From assembly GCF_003334305.1 (NCBI RefSeq), contig NZ_QOWS01000008.1: DNA of 64,000 bases; one strand, written 5' to 3'. A program made the translations under genes and the position numbers. Positions 13,488-42,543 of this stretch are shown here, piece after piece; positions within the stretch are counted from its first letter, which is position 1; every line of letters starts with the position of its first letter. Origin of the DNA: Escherichia coli. Its GTDB lineage: Bacteria; Pseudomonadota; Gammaproteobacteria; Enterobacterales; Enterobacteriaceae. The notes under the pieces were generated by a model. That model did no database searches. It was not told where the DNA came from and saw only the letters and a list, made by a program, of their open reading frames with translations.

Positions 13488-13578
13488 TTAACACCCCACT
13501 AAAAGGTTAATGCTTACCACGTTGCAATTAACCTGAAGCTAATAGACCGCTTGATAAGCGGCCTGACCTTTCTTGTTG

Positions 13579-14667
13579 TTACGCTGATTGACAATCGGCA
13601 ATGGCGTTAAGAACAAGCTCGTGCGAAACGCCGCTGCGAACTTCACTCTTACCAATTGCCAACGGAAGAATTAAGCGTATCTCTCCCGCAAGGACTTTCT
13701 TGTCACGCAGCATATGCGGTAAATACGCCTGCGCGGACATTTCGCGCGGCCCATTGACCGGTAACCCAGCCCGCTTGAGCAGGGTTATAATACGCTGCGT
13801 TTCGGCAGAACTAAACTGCCCGAGACGTTCCGACGTCCGCGCCGCCATCACCATACCCGCAGCGACCGCTTCACCATGTAACCAATTGCCATACCCCATT
13901 TCAGCTTCAATGGCATGACCAAAGGTGTGTCCCAGATTCAGTAAAGCACGTAACCCGGTTTCGCGCTCGTCGGCGGCGACAACTTCTGCCTTCAGTTCAC
14001 AACAACGGCGAATACAGTACGCCATTGCCGGACCGTCCAGACGCAACAACGCATCCAGATTCTCTTCCAGCCAGTTAAAAAACGCACCGTCAAGAATAAT
14101 GCCGTATTTGATGACTTCTGCCAGCCCCGACGCTAACTCACGCGGGGGAAGCGTTTTCAGACAGTCGAGATCCACCACCACTGAAGCAGGCTGGTAGAAT
14201 GCGCCAATCATGTTTTTACCGAGGGGATGGTTGACCGCAGTTTTGCCGCCAACGGAGGAATCGACCTGCGACAGTAACGTCGTCGGGACTTGAATGAAAC
14301 GAACACCGCGCTGATAACTCGCCGCCGCGAAGCCGGTCAGATCGCCCACTACGCCGCCGCCAAGCGCCACCAGCGTAGTATCGCGACCATGCGGCTTTTG
14401 TAACAACGCCGTAAAGACGGTATCGAGTACAGCCAGGCTTTTATACTGCTCGCCATCAGGGAGGATAACGCTATCGACGTTAACACCCGCCTGTTCAAGT
14501 ACGCCGCGGACCTTATCGAGATACAGAGGAGCCAGGGTTTCGTTGGTGACCAACATGACCTGCTCGCCCGATTTCAGCGGTAAGAATGAAGCTGGTTCAT
14601 TAAACAAACCAGATGCGATGGTAATTGGGTAACTACGTTCCCCGAGAGTAACGACAATCCTCTCCAT
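13579..14667 (-). CDS. aroB: 3-dehydroquinate synthase
   Basis: 362 aa ORF; synteny with aroK. Confidence 0.95.
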
Positions 14668-14723
14668 AACGCGACATCCACCTTAATTACTGTACCCGCA
14701 GACGAGTGTATATAAAGCCAGAA

Positions 14724-15245
14724 TTAGTTGCTTTCCAGCATGTGAATAATCTGGTTTGCAACCACTTTAGCGCTTTGATCATCAGTACGAATGGTCACGT
14801 CGGCAATCTCTTCATACAGCGGATTGCGTTCATTGGCCAACGCTTCCAGAACTTCACGCGGCGGTGTTTCAACGTGCAGCAACGGGCGTTTTTTATCACG
14901 CTGCGTGCGTGCAAGTTGCTTTTCGATGGTCGTTTCAAGATAAACGACAACGCCACGAGCGGAAAGACGGTTACGCGTTTCACGGGATTTCACAGAGCCG
15001 CCGCCAGTAGCCAGCACAATACCCTGTTTCTCGGTCAACTCATTGATGACCTTTTCTTCGCGATCGCGGAAGCCTTCTTCGCCTTCTAAATCGAAAACCC
15101 AGCCCACATCAGCTCCGGTTCGTTTCTCAATCTCTTGATCGGAATCGTAAAATTCCATATTGAGTTGTTGAGCTAACTGGCGCCCAATAGTGCTTTTTCC
15201 GGCACCCATAGGCCCAACCAGAAAGATATTGCGTTTCTCTGCCAT
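14724..15245 (-). CDS. aroK: shikimate kinase I
   Basis: 173 aa from [19 protein letters not shown] (P-loop); the ORF track form is extended by an upstream in-frame ATG. Confidence 0.9.
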
Positions 15246-15645
15246 TTTTTCGGTACTACTAAGACTATTCGTTAATGATAAACCCGCTTCGCTCAGAGAG
15301 CGCCGCAGGACATGAACTGAAACCTCATAAGATATTGCGAGAGTCAGACTGAAAATTATCTCAATACTCCAGCGGGTTTGGCAACTGAATAAATCACCCA
15401 TCCCTCTGCATATCTGGTCGCTGCAAGCGCGCTGCCTTGCTACCACCGCTCTGGCGATAAATCACCGGGTAAGATTAGCGTAAAAAAGACAGCAAAATGC
15501 CGCCTGAATGATAAATCATCATCATGGAACGCAGGCAGCGAAGAGCACCAACTCTCAAATCGGTACTCCTTGTATGCTAAATACCTGCGCGCGTCAAATA
15601 GATGAAACACGTTCAGCGTAAAAACATTACCGCTTTTACGGCTGT

Positions 15646-16884
15646 TTACTCACTGGAAACCAGTCGTGGCGTGATAAACACCACTAACTCGCGTCGTTCA
15701 TCTTCTTTTCCGTCATGACGAAATAATTGCCCGAACCAGGGAATGTCGCCAAGCAACGGCACGCTATCCTGACCCGATTTATTTTTACGGGTAAAAATGC
15801 CGCCCAGCGCCAACGTTTCTCCGCTTTTGACCTCGACCTGCGTTTCGATCTCCTGCTTATCAATCGCCAGCACTTCGCCATCGGCCTGCTGTAGCACCTG
15901 CCCCGGAACGTTCTGGCTGATGTGTAATTTCAGCCGGATGCGACCTTTTTGTAACACCGTGGGCGTGACCTCCATCCCCAGGACGGCCTCTTTAAATTCC
16001 ACCGACGTCGCGCCACTTTCCCCGCTGGAAACCTGATATGGAATTTCGCTCCCCTGTTTAATACTGGCAGGCTGAAGATGTGAGGCCAGCAGACGCGGAC
16101 TGGCGATAATATCCAGTTGCTGTTTTTGTTCGAGCGCGGAAAGCTCAAGATCCAGCAAACGTCCGTTGATGCGCCCAATGTTAAAACCGACATGCGTTGT
16201 CGCCGTCGCTACGGAGAGGTCGCTACCAAGCGTGGTGACTTGCCCAACACCACCAGCGTGTTGCGCATCGGCCAGCGTCCATTTCACGCCTAACTCACGC
16301 AAACTTTTTTCATTAATGGTGACAATATGCGCCGACAGCTCAACCTGCCCGACCGGAAGATCCATTTGCGCTACCCACTGTTCAAGCGCGCTTAACGCCG
16401 TTTTGTTATCTCGTAGCAAAAGGCGATTGGTGCGTTTATCGACGGTCATACTCCCTTTGGCACTCAGTAGCTTCTCCCCCGCTTTCGCCAGTTCTCCCGC
16501 GTCGGCGTATTGCAGGGTTATACTGCGATTTTCCAGCGGCAGATTTGCCTGCGCCCGCGCCTGCTCCGCCTCCTGGCGGGCGATATTGTCATTCTGCCAG
16601 GCAATAGAATGCACTGAGAGAATGTTGCCCTCCTGGCGCGTTATCAGCCCGGCGCTTTTCACTACAGTTTGTAGTGCCTGCTTCCAGGGAACATCTGTTA
16701 GATGTAACGACACCGTACCGCTGACGTCTGGCGACACGACCAGGTTCAACTTCTCCTGTTCAGCCAGCGCCTGCAACACCTGAGCCACCGGAACGTCATC
16801 CACCATCAGCGTCACTTTTTGCGGCTTTGCCGCCTGTACGCCGGGTATCAGCATCAACAGTAGTGCGGCTATCCATTGCTTCAT
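15646..16884 (-). CDS. hofQ: secretin-family outer-membrane protein of the cryptic DNA-uptake/type IV pilus operon
   Basis: 412 aa ORF with signal peptide and secretin-like C-terminus. Confidence 0.85.
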   Translation of the reverse strand: MKQWIAALLLMLIPGVQAAKPQKVTLMVDDVPVAQVLQALAEQEKLNLVVSPDVSGTVSLHLTDVPWKQALQTVVKSAGLITRQEGNILSVHSIAWQNDNIARQEAEQARAQANLPLENRSITLQYADAGELAKAGEKLLSAKGSMTVDKRTNRLLLRDNKTALSALEQWVAQMDLPVGQVELSAHIVTINEKSLRELGVKWTLADAQHAGGVGQVTTLGSDLSVATATTHVGFNIGRINGRLLDLELSALEQKQQLDIIASPRLLASHLQPASIKQGSEIPYQVSSGESGATSVEFKEAVLGMEVTPTVLQKGRIRLKLHISQNVPGQVLQQADGEVLAIDKQEIETQVEVKSGETLALGGIFTRKNKSGQDSVPLLGDIPWFGQLFRHDGKEDERRELVVFITPRLVSSE

Positions 16885-17200
16885 TTGTATCTCCTTGCCG
16901 TTGCCACAACCATTGTGGCGGTTCGCAGTTTGTCCCGGTACCCAGCGTTAGTACGTCTGGCGTCAGCTGTAAAATTGTCCAGCCGTTTTCCAGCACATCG
17001 TTTTGCTGCACCCGTCGCCATTTCTTTTGCCCGTCTTTTATTACACCGATGATGCGCTCGCCTCGCCCTACCATCCCCTGATAGCGCCACTGGCTAAGTT
17101 CGCTAATCCGGCATAGATCTTCCGGCGGTTTAAAAGGGTCACGCATACCGGTTAAAAGGCACAATGCAATACCTGCCAACAACCAGCGTTTAACCCTCAT
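16796..17200 (-). CDS. hofP: DNA-utilization/pilus assembly protein HofP
   Basis: 134 aa from MRVKRWLLAG...; start choice uncertain; overlaps hofQ start in the ORF track. Confidence 0.65.
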   Translation of the reverse strand: MRVKRWLLAGIALCLLTGMRDPFKPPEDLCRISELSQWRYQGMVGRGERIIGVIKDGQKKWRRVQQNDVLENGWTILQLTPDVLTLGTGTNCEPPQWLWQRQGDTNEAMDSRTTVDADTRRTGGKAAKSDADGG

Positions 17201-17630
17201 GCGGCGTCTCCAGTTGTAGCGTGAACAAAAGATCATCACCTTCCACGCTTAACGAAAAACGGCTCACGCTGACGTTGCGCTCTGCCAGCCGTGTAAATGC
17301 CGACGGCACTGCTTCCCACAGCGTTTTCAACGCCAACTCGCCTCCCTGCGCGGATGGATGCCAGGAAACCAGTTGCGCGCCGGATAACTGAAAATCCAGT
17401 GGCGAAAAGGGCAGCGTTTTTTCCTCGCTGAAGGGAGTGGTGTCTACCAGGCGATACAGTGCGGCCCACTGCTGGTGATGACTTGCCCGTAGTCGAATTA
17501 ATGCGTCGCGCTCTTCATGGTGTGTCGATGATAGAAAAATGAGCGTAACTAACATCAGCAACCAGAATGCCCAGCAAAGCTGGCGGAGGCGGGGTGATGT
17601 GGCGAACCACCAGTCAAAGAACATGTTCAT
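17190..17630 (-). CDS. hofO: DNA-utilization protein HofO (PilO-like)
   Basis: 146 aa ORF with N-terminal TM helix. Confidence 0.75.
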   Translation of the reverse strand: MNMFFDWWFATSPRLRQLCWAFWLLMLVTLIFLSSTHHEERDALIRLRASHHQQWAALYRLVDTTPFSEEKTLPFSPLDFQLSGAQLVSWHPSAQGGELALKTLWEAVPSAFTRLAERNVSVSRFSLSVEGDDLLFTLQLETPHEG

Positions 17631-18153
17631 CGCTAACCTTCCTTGTTAACTGATACTCAAATTGCCAGCGTCCCTGCGCATCCTGCTGCGTGGCTCCCCG
17701 CTGATTGAGATGAAAAGACGCATCCTGGCGGAGTGACGTTTCTAGTGCGTTTAACGCGGTAATGCTTGTTGTCAGCCCCTTGATCTCCAGCGTTCCCTGC
17801 TGCCAGCTTATCGTTGTCAGCCAGGCGTGCTCGGGTAAAAGCGCCGCCAGTGCTTCCAGCGCAGATTGCCAGTCGCGGGTAAATTGTCGCTGGCGCTGCC
17901 GTTGCGAACGCTGTTCGCGTAACTGCTGTTGCTCCAGCAAACGTGGCTTCGTTATCTGTAAGCTGCGGGCGAGTTGTTGTTCCGCCTGAAGCAAAACTGC
18001 GTCTATGCGCGCTTCGGCGCTGCCTGTCAGACGCAGTATTAGCGTTATCCCGACGGCCAGCAGCAGAGGCGCAACGAACATCAGCAACCAGAAACGCAGA
18101 AAAGCGGTCCGGCGTTGCTGTCGCCAGGGCAAAAAATTAATTGGCGGGTTCAT
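17614..18153 (-). CDS. hofN: DNA-utilization protein HofN (PilN-like)
   Basis: 179 aa ORF with N-terminal TM helix and coiled-coil-like region. Confidence 0.75.
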   Translation of the reverse strand: MNPPINFLPWRQQRRTAFLRFWLLMFVAPLLLAVGITLILRLTGSAEARIDAVLLQAEQQLARSLQITKPRLLEQQQLREQRSQRQRQRQFTRDWQSALEALAALLPEHAWLTTISWQQGTLEIKGLTTSITALNALETSLRQDASFHLNQRGATQQDAQGRWQFEYQLTRKVSDEHVL

Positions 18154-18932
18154 CAGTACGCCTTCCCAAGCGCCAGCCCCAGCGCGATGGCAAAGTCTCC
18201 ACCTGGCGGCGGTAGCGGCGGCTGACGAACAGAAACGGCCTCCCAGGGATCAAATCCCCCTTCGCCACATATCGCGACGCTTTCGGGATCAACGGATAAC
18301 GCTGCCGCCAGCTCCTTCGCGCTAGTCATCCCCACCGCCAGTTTGCGCCCCCAGCGACAGCGTGTCGCCCACAGCCACTGTTCGTTATCACGCCAGGCCA
18401 GACATTGCTGATGAGAAGGTAAAAAAGGCAGGAATTGCTGTAATGCACTGGCATCCGGGGTGATCGCGCTCACATGAACACGCAACCTTTCTGCCAGAGT
18501 AAGTAGCGTTGCCAGCTCTTTGCTTTGCGCGGCAGTCACGTTATAGGCGGGGCTGAGTGAGTCTTCGCTGTAATCGAAGCGCAGGGAGTCCGGATCCATA
18601 TCCAGCTCGCGGGCCATCGTCCCTGACAGCCAGGCCGTTTGCTCCCGCTCACCAAGGGACATCGACGGGCGCGGAAATGACCGCTGTAATGTGCGACTGG
18701 CGGGAAACGCCAACATAATGTGATGACGCTGCGGCAGTTCGCGACTCCACGGTAACAACGTTTTAGCCAGCTGCTGCGCATCAACAATCCGCCCATCTTT
18801 GATAATGTCGTTCTCCAGCGGCAACCGCCACCAGCGTTGCAAAAAGCATTCTTTTGCTCCCCGCACGATCGCAACCGCTACCGCTTCTTGCTGTTGTAAA
18901 TGCAAACCAATTTGCCAGATCTTAAATGCCAT
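18153..18932 (-). CDS. hofM: DNA-utilization protein HofM (PilM-like)
   Basis: 259 aa from MAFKIWQIG... Confidence 0.8.
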   Translation of the reverse strand: MAFKIWQIGLHLQQQEAVAVAIVRGAKECFLQRWWRLPLENDIIKDGRIVDAQQLAKTLLPWSRELPQRHHIMLAFPASRTLQRSFPRPSMSLGEREQTAWLSGTMARELDMDPDSLRFDYSEDSLSPAYNVTAAQSKELATLLTLAERLRVHVSAITPDASALQQFLPFLPSHQQCLAWRDNEQWLWATRCRWGRKLAVGMTSAKELAAALSVDPESVAICGEGGFDPWEAVSVRQPPLPPPGGDFAIALGLALGKAY

Positions 18933-19051
18933 TGTGATGATCTCCTTATCACCCGTCACTCTGACGGGTATATCAATGCGTCTGGCTTGCCTTTATACTA
19001 CCGCGCGTTTGTTTATAAACTGCCCAAATGAAACTAAATGGGAAATTTCCA

Positions 19052-21604
19052 GTGAAGTTCGTAAAGTATTTTTTGATCCTTGCAGTCTGTTGCATTCTGC
19101 TGGGAGCAGGCTCGATTTATGGCCTATACCGCTACATCGAGCCACAACTGCCGGATGTGGCGACATTAAAAGATGTTCGCCTGCAAATTCCGATGCAGAT
19201 TTACAGCGCCGATGGCGAGCTGATTGCTCAATACGGTGAGAAACGTCGTATTCCGGTTACGTTGGATCAAATCCCACCGGAGATGGTGAAAGCCTTTATC
19301 GCGACGGAAGACAGCCGCTTCTACGAGCATCACGGCGTTGACCCGGTGGGGATCTTCCGTGCGGCAAGTGTGGCGCTGTTCTCCGGCCACGCGTCACAAG
19401 GGGCGAGTACCATTACCCAGCAGCTGGCGAGAAATTTCTTCCTCAGTCCAGAACGCACGCTGATGCGTAAGATTAAGGAAGTCTTCCTCGCGATTCGCAT
19501 TGAACAGTTGCTGACGAAAGACGAGATCCTCGAGCTTTATCTGAACAAGATTTACCTCGGTTACCGCGCCTATGGTGTCGGTGCTGCGGCACAAGTCTAT
19601 TTCGGTAAAACGGTCGACCAACTGACGCTGAACGAAATGGCTGTGATCGCCGGGCTGCCGAAAGCGCCTTCCACCTTTAATCCGCTCTACTCAATGGATC
19701 GTGCCGTCGCGCGGCGTAACGTCGTACTGTCGCGGATGCTGGATGAAGGGTATATCACCCAACAACAGTTCGATCAGACACGCACTGAGGCGATTAACGC
19801 TAACTATCACGCGCCGGAGATTGCTTTCTCTGCGCCGTACCTGAGCGAAATGGTGCGCCAGGAGATGTATAACCGTTATGGCGAAAGTGCCTATGAAGAC
19901 GGTTATCGCATTTACACCACCATCACCCGCAAAGTGCAGCAGGCCGCACAGCAGGCGGTACGTAATAACGTGCTGGACTACGACATGCGCCACGGCTATC
20001 GCGGCCCGGCAAATGTGCTGTGGAAAGTGGGCGAGTCGGCGTGGGATAACAACAAGATTACCGATACGCTGAAGGCGCTGCCAACCTATGGTCCGCTGCT
20101 GCCTGCCGCAGTCACCAGCGCCAATCCTCAGCAAGCGACGGCGATGCTGGCGGACGGGTCGACCGTCGCATTGAGTATGGAAGGCGTTCGCTGGGCGCGT
20201 CCTTACCGTTCGGATACTCAGCAAGGACCGACGCCGCGTAAAGTGACCGATGTTCTGCAAACGGGTCAGCAAATCTGGGTTCGTCAGGTTGGCGATGCAT
20301 GGTGGCTGGCACAAGTGCCGGAAGTGAACTCGGCGCTGGTGTCGATCAATCCGCAAAACGGTGCCGTTATGGCGCTGGTCGGTGGCTTTGATTTCAATCA
20401 GAGCAAGTTTAACCGCGCCACCCAGGCACTGCGTCAGGTGGGTTCCAACATCAAACCGTTCCTCTACACCGCGGCGATGGATAAAGGTCTGACGCTGGCA
20501 AGTATGTTGAACGATGTGCCAATTTCTCGCTGGGATGCAGGTGCCGGTTCTGACTGGCAGCCGAAGAACTCACCACCGCAGTATGCTGGTCCAATTCGCT
20601 TACGTCAGGGGCTGGGTCAGTCGAAAAACGTGGTGATGGTACGCGCAATGCGGGCGATGGGCGTCGACTACGCTGCAGAATATCTGCAACGCTTCGGCTT
20701 CCCGGCGCAAAACATTGTCCACACCGAATCGCTGGCGCTGGGTTCAGCGTCCTTCACCCCAATGCAGGTGGCGCGCGGCTACGCGGTCATGGCGAACGGT
20801 GGCTTCCTGGTGGACCCGTGGTTTATCAGCAAAATTGAAAACGATCAGGGCGGCGTGATTTTCGAAGCGAAACCGAAAGTAGCCTGCCCGGAATGCGATA
20901 TTCCGGTGATTTACGGTGATACGCAGAAATCGAACGTGCTGGAAAATAACGATGTTGAAGATGTCGCTATCTCCCGCGAGCAGCAGAATGTTTCTGTACC
21001 AATGCCGCAGCTGGAGCAGGCAAATCAGGCGTTAGTGGCGAAGACTGGCGCGCAGGAGTACGCACCGCACGTCATCAACACTCCGCTGGCATTCCTGATT
21101 AAGAGTGCTTTGAACACCAATATCTTTGGTGAACCAGGCTGGCAGGGTACCGGCTGGCGTGCAGGTCGTGATTTGCAGCGTCGCGATATCGGCGGGAAAA
21201 CCGGTACCACTAACAGTTCGAAAGATGCGTGGTTCTCGGGTTACGGTCCGGGCGTTGTGACCTCGGTCTGGATTGGCTTTGATGATCACCGTCGTAATCT
21301 CGGTCATACAACGGCTTCCGGAGCGATTAAAGATCAGATCTCAGGTTACGAAGGCGGTGCCAAGAGTGCCCAGCCTGCATGGGACGCTTATATGAAAGCC
21401 GTTCTTGAAGGTGTGCCGGAGCAGCCGCTGACGCCGCCTCCGGGTATTGTGACGGTGAATATCGATCGCAGCACCGGGCAGTTAGCTAATGGTGGCAACA
21501 GCCGCGAAGAGTATTTCATCGAAGGTACGCAGCCGACACAACAGGCGGTGCACGAGGTGGGAACGACCATTATCGATAATGGTGAGGCACAGGAATTGTT
21601 CTGA
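19052..21604 (+). CDS. mrcA: penicillin-binding protein 1A (bifunctional transglycosylase/transpeptidase)
   Basis: 850 aa from GTG at 19052 (VKFVKYFLIL...); an in-frame ATG lies 24 nt upstream. Confidence 0.9.
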   Translation: MKFVKYFLILAVCCILLGAGSIYGLYRYIEPQLPDVATLKDVRLQIPMQIYSADGELIAQYGEKRRIPVTLDQIPPEMVKAFIATEDSRFYEHHGVDPVGIFRAASVALFSGHASQGASTITQQLARNFFLSPERTLMRKIKEVFLAIRIEQLLTKDEILELYLNKIYLGYRAYGVGAAAQVYFGKTVDQLTLNEMAVIAGLPKAPSTFNPLYSMDRAVARRNVVLSRMLDEGYITQQQFDQTRTEAINANYHAPEIAFSAPYLSEMVRQEMYNRYGESAYEDGYRIYTTITRKVQQAAQQAVRNNVLDYDMRHGYRGPANVLWKVGESAWDNNKITDTLKALPTYGPLLPAAVTSANPQQATAMLADGSTVALSMEGVRWARPYRSDTQQGPTPRKVTDVLQTGQQIWVRQVGDAWWLAQVPEVNSALVSINPQNGAVMALVGGFDFNQSKFNRATQALRQVGSNIKPFLYTAAMDKGLTLASMLNDVPISRWDAGAGSDWQPKNSPPQYAGPIRLRQGLGQSKNVVMVRAMRAMGVDYAAEYLQRFGFPAQNIVHTESLALGSASFTPMQVARGYAVMANGGFLVDPWFISKIENDQGGVIFEAKPKVACPECDIPVIYGDTQKSNVLENNDVEDVAISREQQNVSVPMPQLEQANQALVAKTGAQEYAPHVINTPLAFLIKSALNTNIFGEPGWQGTGWRAGRDLQRRDIGGKTGTTNSSKDAWFSGYGPGVVTSVWIGFDDHRRNLGHTTASGAIKDQISGYEGGAKSAQPAWDAYMKAVLEGVPEQPLTPPPGIVTVNIDRSTGQLANGGNSREEYFIEGTQPTQQAVHEVGTTIIDNGEAQELF

Positions 21605-30808: not shown

Positions 30809-31126
30809 ATGTTCACCTTTATTGAACTACAAGGATTTAGCAAACGCCGCCAGTTATTGTTACCTGATGATGAGTTCCGGGCTTTTCAGGAACTACTCAT
30901 TCAAGATCCCACTGCCGGTGACATTATCGCAGGCACAGGCAGTTTTAGAAAAATTCGCTGGAACCGTTCTGGAATGGGGAAACGGGGTGGCATTCGGATA
31001 ATTTATTACAACGTAACACGCAATGGCCGAATTTATCTGGCGTTGATTTATCCTAAAAATGAACAGGATGATTTAACAGAAGAACAAAGAAAGGCATTGA
31101 AACTATTGTCAGAGAAGCTGCTTTAA
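30809..31126 (+). CDS. RelE/ParE-superfamily toxin, HigB-2-like
   Basis: 105 aa; ...GTGSFRKIRWNRSGMGKRGGIRIIYY...LALIYPKNEQDDL... resembles Vibrio HigB-2 as I recall it. Confidence 0.7.
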   Translation: MFTFIELQGFSKRRQLLLPDDEFRAFQELLIQDPTAGDIIAGTGSFRKIRWNRSGMGKRGGIRIIYYNVTRNGRIYLALIYPKNEQDDLTEEQRKALKLLSEKLL

Positions 31127-31184
31127 TGTTGAAGCTCCACAAATTCCACCATGGTCGAAATGCCAACGGAGACATTGAAAACAG

Positions 31185-31481
31185 ATGAAAGATGAATTAT
31201 TTGCTGATCTTCTTGCCAGCGCAGAAGAAATGGTACGCATCGAAAAGGGTGAAGAAACGCCTGAACCAGAGCACGTCCATACTTTTAGCGAGATCGATGT
31301 AAAAGCGATCCGTGAAGCAACGGGTTTACGTCAGCAAGATTTTGCTGTCGCCGTAGGGGTAAGTTATGACCTGGTCAAAAGCTGGGAAACCAAACGCCGT
31401 CAGCCTACCGGAGCACCTCGAAAATTGCTCCTGCTTTTGCAAGCGAATCCTTTCATTATCAATCAATTGAAAACAATCTAA
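31185..31481 (+). CDS. HTH (XRE-like) antitoxin, HigA-2-like
   Basis: 98 aa; acidic N-terminus and C-terminal helix-turn-helix (LRQQDFAVAVGVSYDLVKSWE); directly downstream of the toxin. Confidence 0.65.
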   Translation: MKDELFADLLASAEEMVRIEKGEETPEPEHVHTFSEIDVKAIREATGLRQQDFAVAVGVSYDLVKSWETKRRQPTGAPRKLLLLLQANPFIINQLKTI

Positions 31482-40144: not shown

Positions 40145-41023
40145 ATGAGTAAAAAGCAGAGTTCCACCCCACATGATGCGCTGTTCAAACTCTTTTTACG
40201 CCAACCGGACACGGCTCGCGATTTTCTTGCGTTCCATTTACCGGCCCCCATTCACGCGCTCTGTGATATGAAAACCCTCAAGCTGGAGTCGAGCAGCTTT
40301 ATTGATGACGATCTGCGTGAAAGCTATTCCGATGTGCTGTGGTCGGTGAAAACGGAACAAGGACCAGGATACATCTATTGTCTGATTGAACATCAAAGCA
40401 CCTCAAACAAACTGATCGCATTTCGCATGATGCGTTAAGCTATTGCCGCAATGCAAAATCACCTTGATGCTGGATACAAAACGTTGCCGATGGTGGTGCT
40501 ATTGTTGTTTTACCACGGTATTGAAAGCCCCTATCCCTATTCGCTGTGTTGGCTGGATTGTTTCGCCGATCCCAAACTGGCAAGGCAGCTTTATGCCTCC
40601 GCATTTCCGCTGATTGATGTCACCGTCATGCCTGATGATGAAATCATGCAGCACCGACGTATGGCGCTGCTGGAGTTAATTCAAAAACATATTCGTCAAC
40701 GCGACCTGATGGGGCTGGTAGAGCAAATGGCCTGCTTATTAAGTAGTGGATACGCTAATGACAGACAAATCAAAGGGCTGTTTAATTACATACTGCAAAC
40801 CGGCGACGCGGTACGTTTTAACGATTTTATCGACGGCGTTGCCGAACGTTCACCGAAACACAAGGAGAGTTTAATGACAATTGCGGAAAGATTGCGGCAG
40901 GAGGGGGAACAATCCAAAGCCCTGCATATAGCCAAAATAATGCTTGAATCCGGAGTCCCTCTTACAGACATCATGCGCTTTACCGGGGTGTCAGAAGAAG
41001 AGTTGGCTGCGGCGAGCCAGTAA
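40145..41023 (+). pseudogene. rpnA: rpnA (yhgA) recombination-promoting nuclease, interrupted by one in-frame TAA at 40436..40438
   Basis: 97 aa ORF + stop + 4 codons + 190 aa ORF, all in one frame, sum to the expected 292 codons. Confidence 0.65.

Positions 41024-41051: not shown

Positions 41052-42543
<1,492 letters not shown>

Follow-up and report, generated by a model that had tools for sequence, protein, structure and literature searches.

The hofMNOPQ operon of Escherichia coli: an ordinary, intact type IV pilus and DNA-uptake locus with conserved gene overlaps

The stretch of DNA analysed here, a window of 64,000 nucleotides of which 64,000 are identical to E. coli strain A7, harbors on its minus strand between positions 15646 and 18932 (hofQ stop to hofM start) the standard hofMNOPQ operon of E. 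coli (formerly yrfDCBA-hofQ), which existing annotation already covers. Its genes specify those parts of a type IV pilus or DNA-uptake machine that span the cell envelope, an assignment that is already known and to which nothing new is added. Its products very probably form the alignment subcomplex and the outer-membrane channel of a chromosomal type IVa pilus/DNA-uptake machine under CRP-S/Sxy control. As a textbook 'cryptic' competence or type IV pilus locus it is of little importance beyond correct annotation. By-products of the analysis are a fold-level check that places HofM with PilM/GspL and HofP with PilP/GspC despite sequences too diverged to be matched directly in databases, the documentation of the overlap architecture, including an 89-nt hofP/hofQ stretch, as conserved across enterobacterial genera, and the confirmation of intact partner genes in the matching A7 genome.

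The five minus-strand open reading frames hofQ, hofP, hofO, hofN and hofM are free of internal stops and lie at the RefSeq coordinates, and all five protein lengths equal those of K-12; the gene identities, the strand and the intact frames given in the first-pass annotation were thus correct. As in PilMNOPQ operons, the genes are tightly linked on one strand in the order M-N-O-P-Q. The same arrangement is found in three other enterobacterial loci (Salmonella, Citrobacter and an E. fergusonii-type locus), which also keep the synteny mrcA<>hofMNOPQ-aroK-aroB. Among complete E. coli genomes, 5426 of 5426 carry the locus at an identity of at least 95%; for one complete chromosome record, H60, the best match covers 67% of the operon and ends inside hofQ. 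An intact hofMNOPQ operon is the norm for E. coli as a species and not peculiar to the present strain. The earlier remark that the machinery is preserved in this strain therefore stands insofar as the window equals A7 and the partners are annotated as intact there, but what it describes is the state of the species. The partner genes ppdD-hofB-hofC, ppdAB-ygdB-ppdC, ycaI (comEC), sxy and gntX are all annotated as intact in A7. One partner of the hof regulon, gntX (yhgH; ComF-family 'DNA utilization protein' in the A7 annotation), is intact within the same window as an open reading frame on the plus strand (41860-42543). An Rfam scan of the entire window returned no RNA family.

NCBIfam contains no model matching HofM, HofN, HofO or HofP, and these proteins were therefore named via Pfam, fold comparison and RefSeq annotation; sequence searches of the PDB with the same four proteins yielded only noise, HofO having no PDB sequence relative. 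HofM (yrfD, 259 aa; 18153-18932, minus strand; a RefSeq CDS in the identical A7, with the length of K-12 b3395) models as a cytoplasmic protein with a PilM-like actin fold, short enough to be about the size of the GspL cytoplasmic domain. Its own Pfam matches are sub-threshold (PilM_2 0.047, T2SSL 0.0086), and PilM_2 is matched at E<=0.001 by 26 of 49 HofM homologs. With the AF2 model (pLDDT 95.5) as query, the eight top Foldseek matches are all P. aeruginosa PilM (2.1e-13 to 3.1e-12, best 5eoy), with the GspL cytoplasmic domain 4pht at 1.7e-11 and T. thermophilus PilM 2ych at a TMq of 0.70. At 259 vs 351-357 aa, HofM falls short of the solved PilM chains by about 95 residues and is equally GspL-cyto-like; in size it is closer to the GspL cytoplasmic domain, which is not known to bind nucleotide.

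HofN (yrfC, 179 aa; 17614-18153, minus strand) is identical in protein sequence to K-12 and matches Pfam PilN (PF05137, 3.1e-9) over residues 99-166. As read from the sequence, it is a bitopic inner-membrane PilN homolog with an N-terminal INFLPW (residues 5-10), one predicted transmembrane helix (hydrophobic stretch 17-42) and the C-terminal PilN domain. Its N-terminus is MNPPINFLPWRQQRR, and we take INFLPW to be a counterpart of the PilM-binding PilN motif INLLP or (I/V)NLLP seen in the PilM:PilN structures 2ych and 5eou. HofO (yrfB, 146 aa; 17190-17630, minus strand) matched in the Pfam search only the HofO (EspM-like) domain PF25319 (2.2e-25, residues 75-142) and not PilO (PF04350), while its place in the operon and its predicted topology, that of a bitopic inner-membrane protein, fit PilO.

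HofP (yrfA, 134 aa; 16796-17200, minus strand) models as a periplasmic PilP/GspC-HR-like β-sandwich (residues ~30-105) followed by a disordered C-terminal tail (~110-134). The fold comparison recovers the HR-type C-terminal β-sandwich of PilP proteins, the model matching the PilP structures 2y4x, 4av2_M and 2ivw; the tail is predicted to be disordered (pLDDT <40) and varies in sequence between genera. A conserved lipobox cysteine, as expected of PilP lipoproteins, is not present in HofP: Cys14 (IALC) is confined to E. coli-type sequences, is replaced by L, P, W, M, I, T or F in other genera and is absent from the invariant columns of the alignment, in which the LTGMR(D/N)PF segment directly after the Cys14 region is conserved.

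HofQ (412 aa; 15646-16884, minus strand) is a PilQ-type outer-membrane secretin with a predicted Sec signal peptide. It scores 855.8 bits on the NCBIfam model PRK10560 HofQ (cut-off 598) and 448.9 bits on TIGR02515 PilQ (cut-off 284.35), and stays below the cut-offs of the GspD (194.2 vs 351.35) and SctC models. Its best PDB match is V. cholerae PilQ (6w6m, 7.7e-75), spanning residues 23-409. The cleavable signal peptide, read from the translation as MKQWIAALLLMLIPGVQA/AKPQ, is conserved in three other taxa. The designation 'PilMNOPQ-like' in the first-pass annotation accordingly holds for HofQ by model and PDB match, for HofN by Pfam, for HofM by fold and homologs and for HofP by fold, whereas for HofO the link consists solely of a Pfam family of its own and the position in the operon.

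If the machine is put together like homologous PilMNOPQ systems, HofM would clamp the N-terminus of HofN in the cytoplasm, and the single-pass inner-membrane proteins HofN and HofO would pair in the periplasm, where the HofP β-sandwich would connect this pair with N0 of the secretin HofQ. A PpdD pilus powered by HofB/HofC may then extend through HofQ, with DNA drawn in through the same channel. According to the literature, the operon is near-silent in the laboratory, and its weak CRP-S promoter is activated only by cAMP-CRP together with the co-activator Sxy. For K-12, a 16-fold induction of yrfD by Sxy, dependent on CRP and cAMP, as well as a very low or undetectable expression in standard culture have been reported (PMC1635313). 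A hofQ::kan insertion abolishes Sxy-dependent DNA uptake in K-12 derivatives, and no tested condition, sxy induction included, has led to natural transformation in E. coli (PMC3330819).

The same machine might instead have as its main output a surface type IV pilus for host adhesion and persistence, such as the haemorrhagic coli pilus of EHEC or the structure used by UPEC in kidney colonisation, with DNA uptake or catabolism as a minor or laboratory-only activity. UTI89 delta-hofQ and CFT073 delta-hofQ delta-yheF are defective in day-7 kidney colonisation (PMC2649431), EHEC makes adhesive PpdD-based pili (PMC2920817), and attempts at chromosomal transformation have never succeeded under natural conditions (PMC3330819). 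On the other hand, Sxy control is shared with ppdD and the ycaI/comEC and gntX/comF homologs, which ties the operon to the DNA-uptake regulon (PMC1635313), Sxy-induced uptake requires hofQ, and among solved structures HofQ is closest to the V. cholerae secretin named above. A predominantly adhesive role is considered rather unlikely; surface-pilus and DNA-uptake roles are not mutually exclusive.

The upstream regulatory fragment of hofM (19083-19208, minus strand) falls within the 5' part of the mrcA coding sequence, which runs divergently. In electrophoretic mobility shift assays the hofM (yrfD) promoter fragment was bound weakly by CRP, and two CRP-S sites were assigned to it, the second at -246 according to the Figure 4 legend (PMC1635313). 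The primers of that study (Cameron & Redfield 2006) map to 19083-19104 and 19189-19208, and the fragment is unchanged in the window. Two candidate CRP-S 22-mers are found at 19179-19200 (ATCTGCATCGGAATTTGCAGGC), which fits the -246 position, and at 19098-19119. Each matches the CRP-S core at 7 of 10 positions, with 1.46 such matches expected by chance in 328 nt; since this is the chance rate, we infer the site positions from the published primers and the '-246' legend. Between 18900 and 19300, a core of the TGCGA-N6-TCGCA type with two or fewer mismatches is not found, and a sigma-70 scan gave nothing credible 5' of hofM. At the other end of the operon, 4 nt 3' of the hofQ stop and before the aroK promoter region, a weak terminator-like hairpin (15629-15642, minus strand) with a 5-pair stem followed by AATGTTTTTA was picked up by a consensus scan; it is merely suggestive, because the scan gave fewer sites than its shuffles.

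Selection on hofMNOPQ is purifying. In comparison with Salmonella, Citrobacter and the E. fergusonii-type locus, dN/dS is 0.03-0.07 for hofQ and 0.10-0.26 for hofM-P. The last of these loci (L008), whose species label rests only on a HofP cluster name and is uncertain, has mrcA/aroB dS values of 0.9-1.2 from E. coli and is, in these flanking genes, as distant as Salmonella. HofM-P share 46-69% amino acid identity between genera, and their non-synonymous evolution is 5-15 times faster than that of the flanking mrcA, aroK and aroB, so that they are less constrained than housekeeping genes. Even though dS exceeds 1, the genera have kept the gene order, the overlaps of starts and stops and the Shine-Dalgarno (SD) sequences. 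These observations bear on the notion that the operon is an evolutionary relic, open by chance, drifting towards pseudogenes and devoid of a selected function in E. coli. Such decay could be read from the scarce expression in standard culture, the quick divergence of HofM-P, a Salmonella contig whose hofM carries a nonsense codon, the many truncated or fused HofP clusters and the partial H60 match. It is however opposed by five of five open frames in the window, the presence of the locus in every one of the genomes surveyed, dN/dS well below 1 for each gene, the cross-genus conservation of order, overlaps and SDs, and the published mutant phenotypes (PMC3330819, PMC2649431). The relic reading, already disfavoured, is thus regarded as highly improbable, and a retained envelope machine remains the preferred one.

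Within the operon all junctions overlap. HofM and hofN share 1 nt (TGATG, the hofN ATG using the A of the hofM TGA stop), hofN and hofO 17 nt, and hofO and hofP 11 nt; the shared hofM/hofN boundary and the 17 and 11 nt given in the first-pass annotation are exact. The largest overlap, 89 nt between hofP and hofQ (16796-16884, minus strand), had been missed. In this dual-coding stretch, with frames one apart, hofP codons 105-134 plus stop are read against hofQ codons 1-30, i.e. the signal peptide and the start of N0. Four of the eight same-strand gene overlaps of the 64-kb window fall in hofMNOPQ. Neither the 17-nt nor the 11-nt overlap varies in length in the Salmonella, Citrobacter and E. fergusonii-type loci, and the hofP/hofQ overlap, at 86-98 nt across these loci, is retained in four of four taxa examined. 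The overlap pattern is not due to chance. Every hof start has its own SD placed within the preceding gene, and translation of the subunits is therefore, taking these SDs and the four overlaps together, probably coupled. The SD of hofM is AAGGAGA, 8 nt 5' of its ATG, and that of hofO is AAGGAAGG, 6 nt 5' of its ATG; the hofQ SD (AAGGAG) and ATG sit inside the invariant HofP stretch 'QG..NEAMDS'.

The hofP/hofQ dual-coding overlap is the sole mildly unusual feature of the operon. As a statistically unusual open frame it was rejected: the corresponding relative frame stays open for at least 29 codons in 12 of 54 window genes, which makes a frame of this length unremarkable. Accordingly, the overlaps, and the hofP/hofQ one in particular, may well be an incidental by-product of compaction and of stop positions, without coupling and with a functionless HofP tail, an account that we consider somewhat probable. 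Besides the frequency of such frames, it is in line with a hofP stop imposed by the codons for the conserved V-D-D motif of HofQ, with the disordered and variable tail and with the strong SD of hofQ itself. Against it speak the retention of 86-98 nt in all four taxa, the fixed lengths of the two shorter overlaps and the third-position divergence of hofQ, which inside the overlap reaches about half the downstream value (0.21-0.39 vs 0.54-0.64; Fisher p 0.002-0.03), although a constraint on 5' coding sequence or on the signal peptide could also cause the latter. The halved synonymous divergence is also compatible with a functional overlap, which nevertheless appears improbable. If it were functional, ribosomes ending hofP would traverse the hofQ ribosome-binding site and signal-peptide codons and could thereby set the HofP:HofQ ratio; alternatively, the charged, disordered HofP tail itself may contact the secretin.

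In order to relate the operon to known systems, it was compared with K-12, with competence and pilus machines and with type II secretion. E. coli K-12 MG1655 (b3395-b3391) has the same gene order and strand relative to mrcA/aroK, and neither the protein lengths (259/179/146/134/412) nor the overlaps (1/17/11/89 nt) differ. The operons differ by 23 nucleotide and five amino acid substitutions, with zero to three residues per protein (HofM R166Q, Y192C and S193R, HofO A65T, HofQ N99D). With the competence operons PilMNOPQ/ComABCDE of V. cholerae and H. influenzae the M-N-O-P-Q order and the CRP-S/Sxy control are shared, while the enterobacterial promoter contains two weak CRP-S sites instead of the one in Pasteurellaceae (PMC1635313), and E. 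coli, unlike those organisms, is not naturally transformable in any tested condition (PMC3330819).

Compared to PilMNOP and PilQ of P. aeruginosa, Neisseria and Thermus, HofM-P are too diverged to match solved homologs by sequence; the HofM model is nevertheless closest to PilM (5eoy, 2ych) and the HofP model to PilP, and the PilN domain of HofN and the secretin domain of HofQ are common to both systems. Differences are found in HofM, shortened by about 95 residues, in HofP, which has no conserved lipobox cysteine, in HofO, which belongs to its own Pfam family, and in HofQ, whose 412 aa (vs 714-761 aa) align to the C-terminal part of the longer PilQ chains only, so that their N-terminal extra domains are absent. 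In contrast to the type II secretion system (GspL/GspM/GspC and GspD), HofM and HofN are not fused as in GspL but made as two proteins, the arrangement of pilus systems, and HofQ is far below the GspD cut-off, yet above that of PilQ.

The six-frame ORF list of window 13500-21500 contains five successive minus-strand reading frames, which constitute the hofMNOPQ operon and are flanked by the divergent mrcA on one side and by the co-directional aroK-aroB-damX-dam operon on the other. All 64,000 bases of the window match positions 4408634-4472633 of E. coli strain A7 (NZ_CP028767.1) with 0 mismatches, and therefore the A7 RefSeq annotation carries over one-to-one: hofQ (15646-16884, 412 aa), hofP (16796-17200, 134 aa), hofO (17190-17630, 146 aa), hofN (17614-18153, 179 aa) and hofM (18153-18932, 259 aa), all on the minus strand. 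The operon bounds 15646-18932 proposed in the first-pass annotation fall exactly on the stop codon of hofQ and the start codon of hofM, and its statement that all frames are intact holds: internal stops are found in none of the five genes, and all five have the lengths of K-12 b3391-b3395. The longest ORF of the neighboring mrcA begins with an ATG at 19028 (858 aa), the RefSeq and K-12 start being 19052 (850 aa).

The genes hofM and hofN overlap by 1 base (TGATG), hofN and hofO by 17 nt and hofO and hofP by 11 nt. These three overlaps had been described exactly beforehand, while the largest one in the operon, namely the 89 nt shared by hofP and hofQ (16796-16884), had been left out; it is the sole addition made here and is already within the K-12 annotation. 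Four of the eight same-strand overlaps of the whole window lie in hofMNOPQ, that of hofP/hofQ being the longest. Each downstream start possesses its own Shine-Dalgarno sequence within the preceding gene, i.e. GGAAGG for hofN, AAGGAAGG for hofO, GGAG for hofP and AAGGAG for hofQ.

Within the 89-nt overlap, the invariant RQG..NEAMDS of HofP corresponds, in the other reading frame, to the start codon of hofQ together with its Shine-Dalgarno sequence, and in every taxon compared the hofP stop TGA arises from the codons for V-D-D, a conserved motif of HofQ. A run of 29 open codons in the same relative position is unexceptional, being present in 12 of the 54 genes of the window. The third-position divergence of hofQ amounts to 0.21-0.39 within the overlap versus 0.54-0.64 downstream, thus about half (Fisher p 0.002-0.03). 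This reduction is compatible with a dual-coding constraint and also with the ordinary constraints on 5' coding regions; a functional role of the HofP tail is judged less likely than a tolerated read-through.

HofQ scores 855.8 bits with the HofQ NCBIfam model and lies above the PilQ subfamily cut-off (448.9 vs 284.35 bits) but below those of the GspD and SctC models. Among its solved relatives in the PDB, the PilQ-family secretin of V. cholerae ranks first (6w6m, 7.7e-75), ahead of PilQ from P. aeruginosa, Neisseria and Myxococcus; the N-terminus of HofQ is a typical signal peptide. HofN carries a Pfam PilN domain (3.1e-9) and, at its N-terminus, the sequence INFLPW, which resembles the PilM-binding motif of PilN. 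HofO and HofP match solely their own Pfam families, and HofM yields sub-threshold Pfam matches only (PilM_2 0.047, T2SSL 0.0086). For HofM, HofN, HofO and HofP, NCBIfam gave no match and PDB sequence searches returned noise only; the two weakest assignments were therefore examined by fold. Only 156 relatives of HofM were retrieved when 1.84 billion representatives were searched exhaustively with HMMER, the full-length ones being nearly all of about 240-290 aa, and 26 of the 49 sequences in the HofM-relative alignment match PilM_2 at E<=0.001. The confident AlphaFold model of HofM (pLDDT 95.5) has P. aeruginosa PilM as best Foldseek match (2.1e-13), with the GspL cytoplasmic domain (1.7e-11), T. 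thermophilus PilM (TMq 0.70) and FtsA also among the best matches. On account of these model matches and the PilM_2 matches of its relatives, HofM is predicted to be a short actin-fold protein of PilM/GspL type.

The order mrcA<>hofMNOPQ-aroK-aroB is retained in all three HofP-homolog contigs, from Salmonella, Citrobacter and an E. fergusonii-type locus. Across these loci the N/O and O/P overlaps measure 17 and 11 nt without exception, whereas M/N ranges from 1-4 nt and P/Q from 86-98 nt, the latter measured from the hofQ start that carries the signal peptide. Values of dN/dS versus E. coli, which are rough as dS is saturated, are 0.03-0.07 for hofQ and 0.10-0.26 for hofM-P. Non-synonymous divergence of HofM-P is 0.23-0.50 as compared to 0.01-0.05 in the flanking mrcA, aroK and aroB, hence 5-15x higher. 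Judged from these sequence comparisons, the constraint on the operon is purifying yet comparatively weak, and its purifying character argues against a decaying relic.

Disrupted alleles occur in other genomes, and many HofP clusters are truncated or fused. In the Salmonella contig (L006 2236-3017, Logan SRR28052519) hofM has a nonsense codon at position 60 (HVL*PWSREL) and is probably a pseudogene in this lineage because of that premature stop, hofN-Q being open. In the 4.28-Mb chromosome of E. coli strain CNR20180903 (NZ_OZ369161.1) the best match spans only 67% of the operon (query 1094-3287) and breaks off within hofQ, where it abuts a hypothetical protein; this points to an insertion or deletion in hofQ of that strain. 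The label E. fergusonii of the metagenome scaffold is doubtful, since in its flanking genes mrcA and aroB the distance from E. coli is as large as for Salmonella (dS 0.9-1.2).

The suggested survey of partner genes found ppdD, hofB (labelled gspE), hofC, ppdA, ppdB, ygdB, ppdC, ycaI/comEC, sxy and gntX (41860-42543, inside the window) annotated as intact CDS in A7. The observation is confirmed and the interpretation as preserved cryptic competence machinery supported. Outside the window, A7 has an ETT2-like type III secretion cluster (NZ_CP028767.1 3836970-3845084) that is heavily decayed, many of its genes being frameshifted or internally stopped; the hof, ppd and sxy genes, which are intact, contrast with it.

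Two CRP-S sites have been predicted at the promoter of yrfD (hofM), where CRP binding is weak and specific and Sxy causes a 16-fold induction dependent on CRP and cAMP (Cameron & Redfield 2006, PMC1635313). The EMSA primers of that study map to 19083-19208, within the mrcA coding region. The 22-mer 19179-19200 agrees with the published '-246' site, and a second candidate is found at 19098-19119; both have a core match of 7/10, which is chance level. A hofQ::kan mutation abolishes Sxy-induced DNA uptake, natural transformation was never achieved in the same study, and the authors cite Finkel's DNA-as-nutrient work (Sinha & Redfield 2012, PMC3330819). Uropathogenic (UPEC) hofQ mutants persist poorly in the kidney (PMC2649431).

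Elsewhere in the window, a phosphotriesterase-like gene remnant occupies the yhfV/php position between yhfU and yhfW (4568-4792, minus strand) and is a partial pseudogene without C-terminus according to the identical A7 record. In the pckA-envZ interval (30809-31481, plus strand), a RelE/ParE-family toxin of 105 aa is paired with a NadS/HTH protein of 98 aa, for which PADLOC gives only HTH_VI (1e-5); the pair looks like a small toxin-antitoxin insertion, which is not known from K-12. The recombination-promoting nuclease gene rpnA (40145-41023, plus strand) contains an internal stop and is labelled a pseudogene in the annotation, with no more than a 190-aa ORF (40451-41023) still open. Downstream of glpD (60484-64000, minus strand), three hypothetical proteins of 201, 255 and 236 aa have no significant NCBIfam or PADLOC match; of the long PstS-family protein alongside, only the C-terminal ~215 residues match the phosphate-binding model TIGR02136 (1.5e-35).

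A megablast of window 15000-19500 matched 5,426 of 5,426 complete E. coli genomes, all at >=95% identity and 5425 of them with coverage >=80%, A7 being a 100% match. The hofMNOPQ operon is not novel but already known and annotated, and it is species-wide; summed over the five genes, its differences from that of K-12 amount to 23 nucleotides and 5 amino acids.
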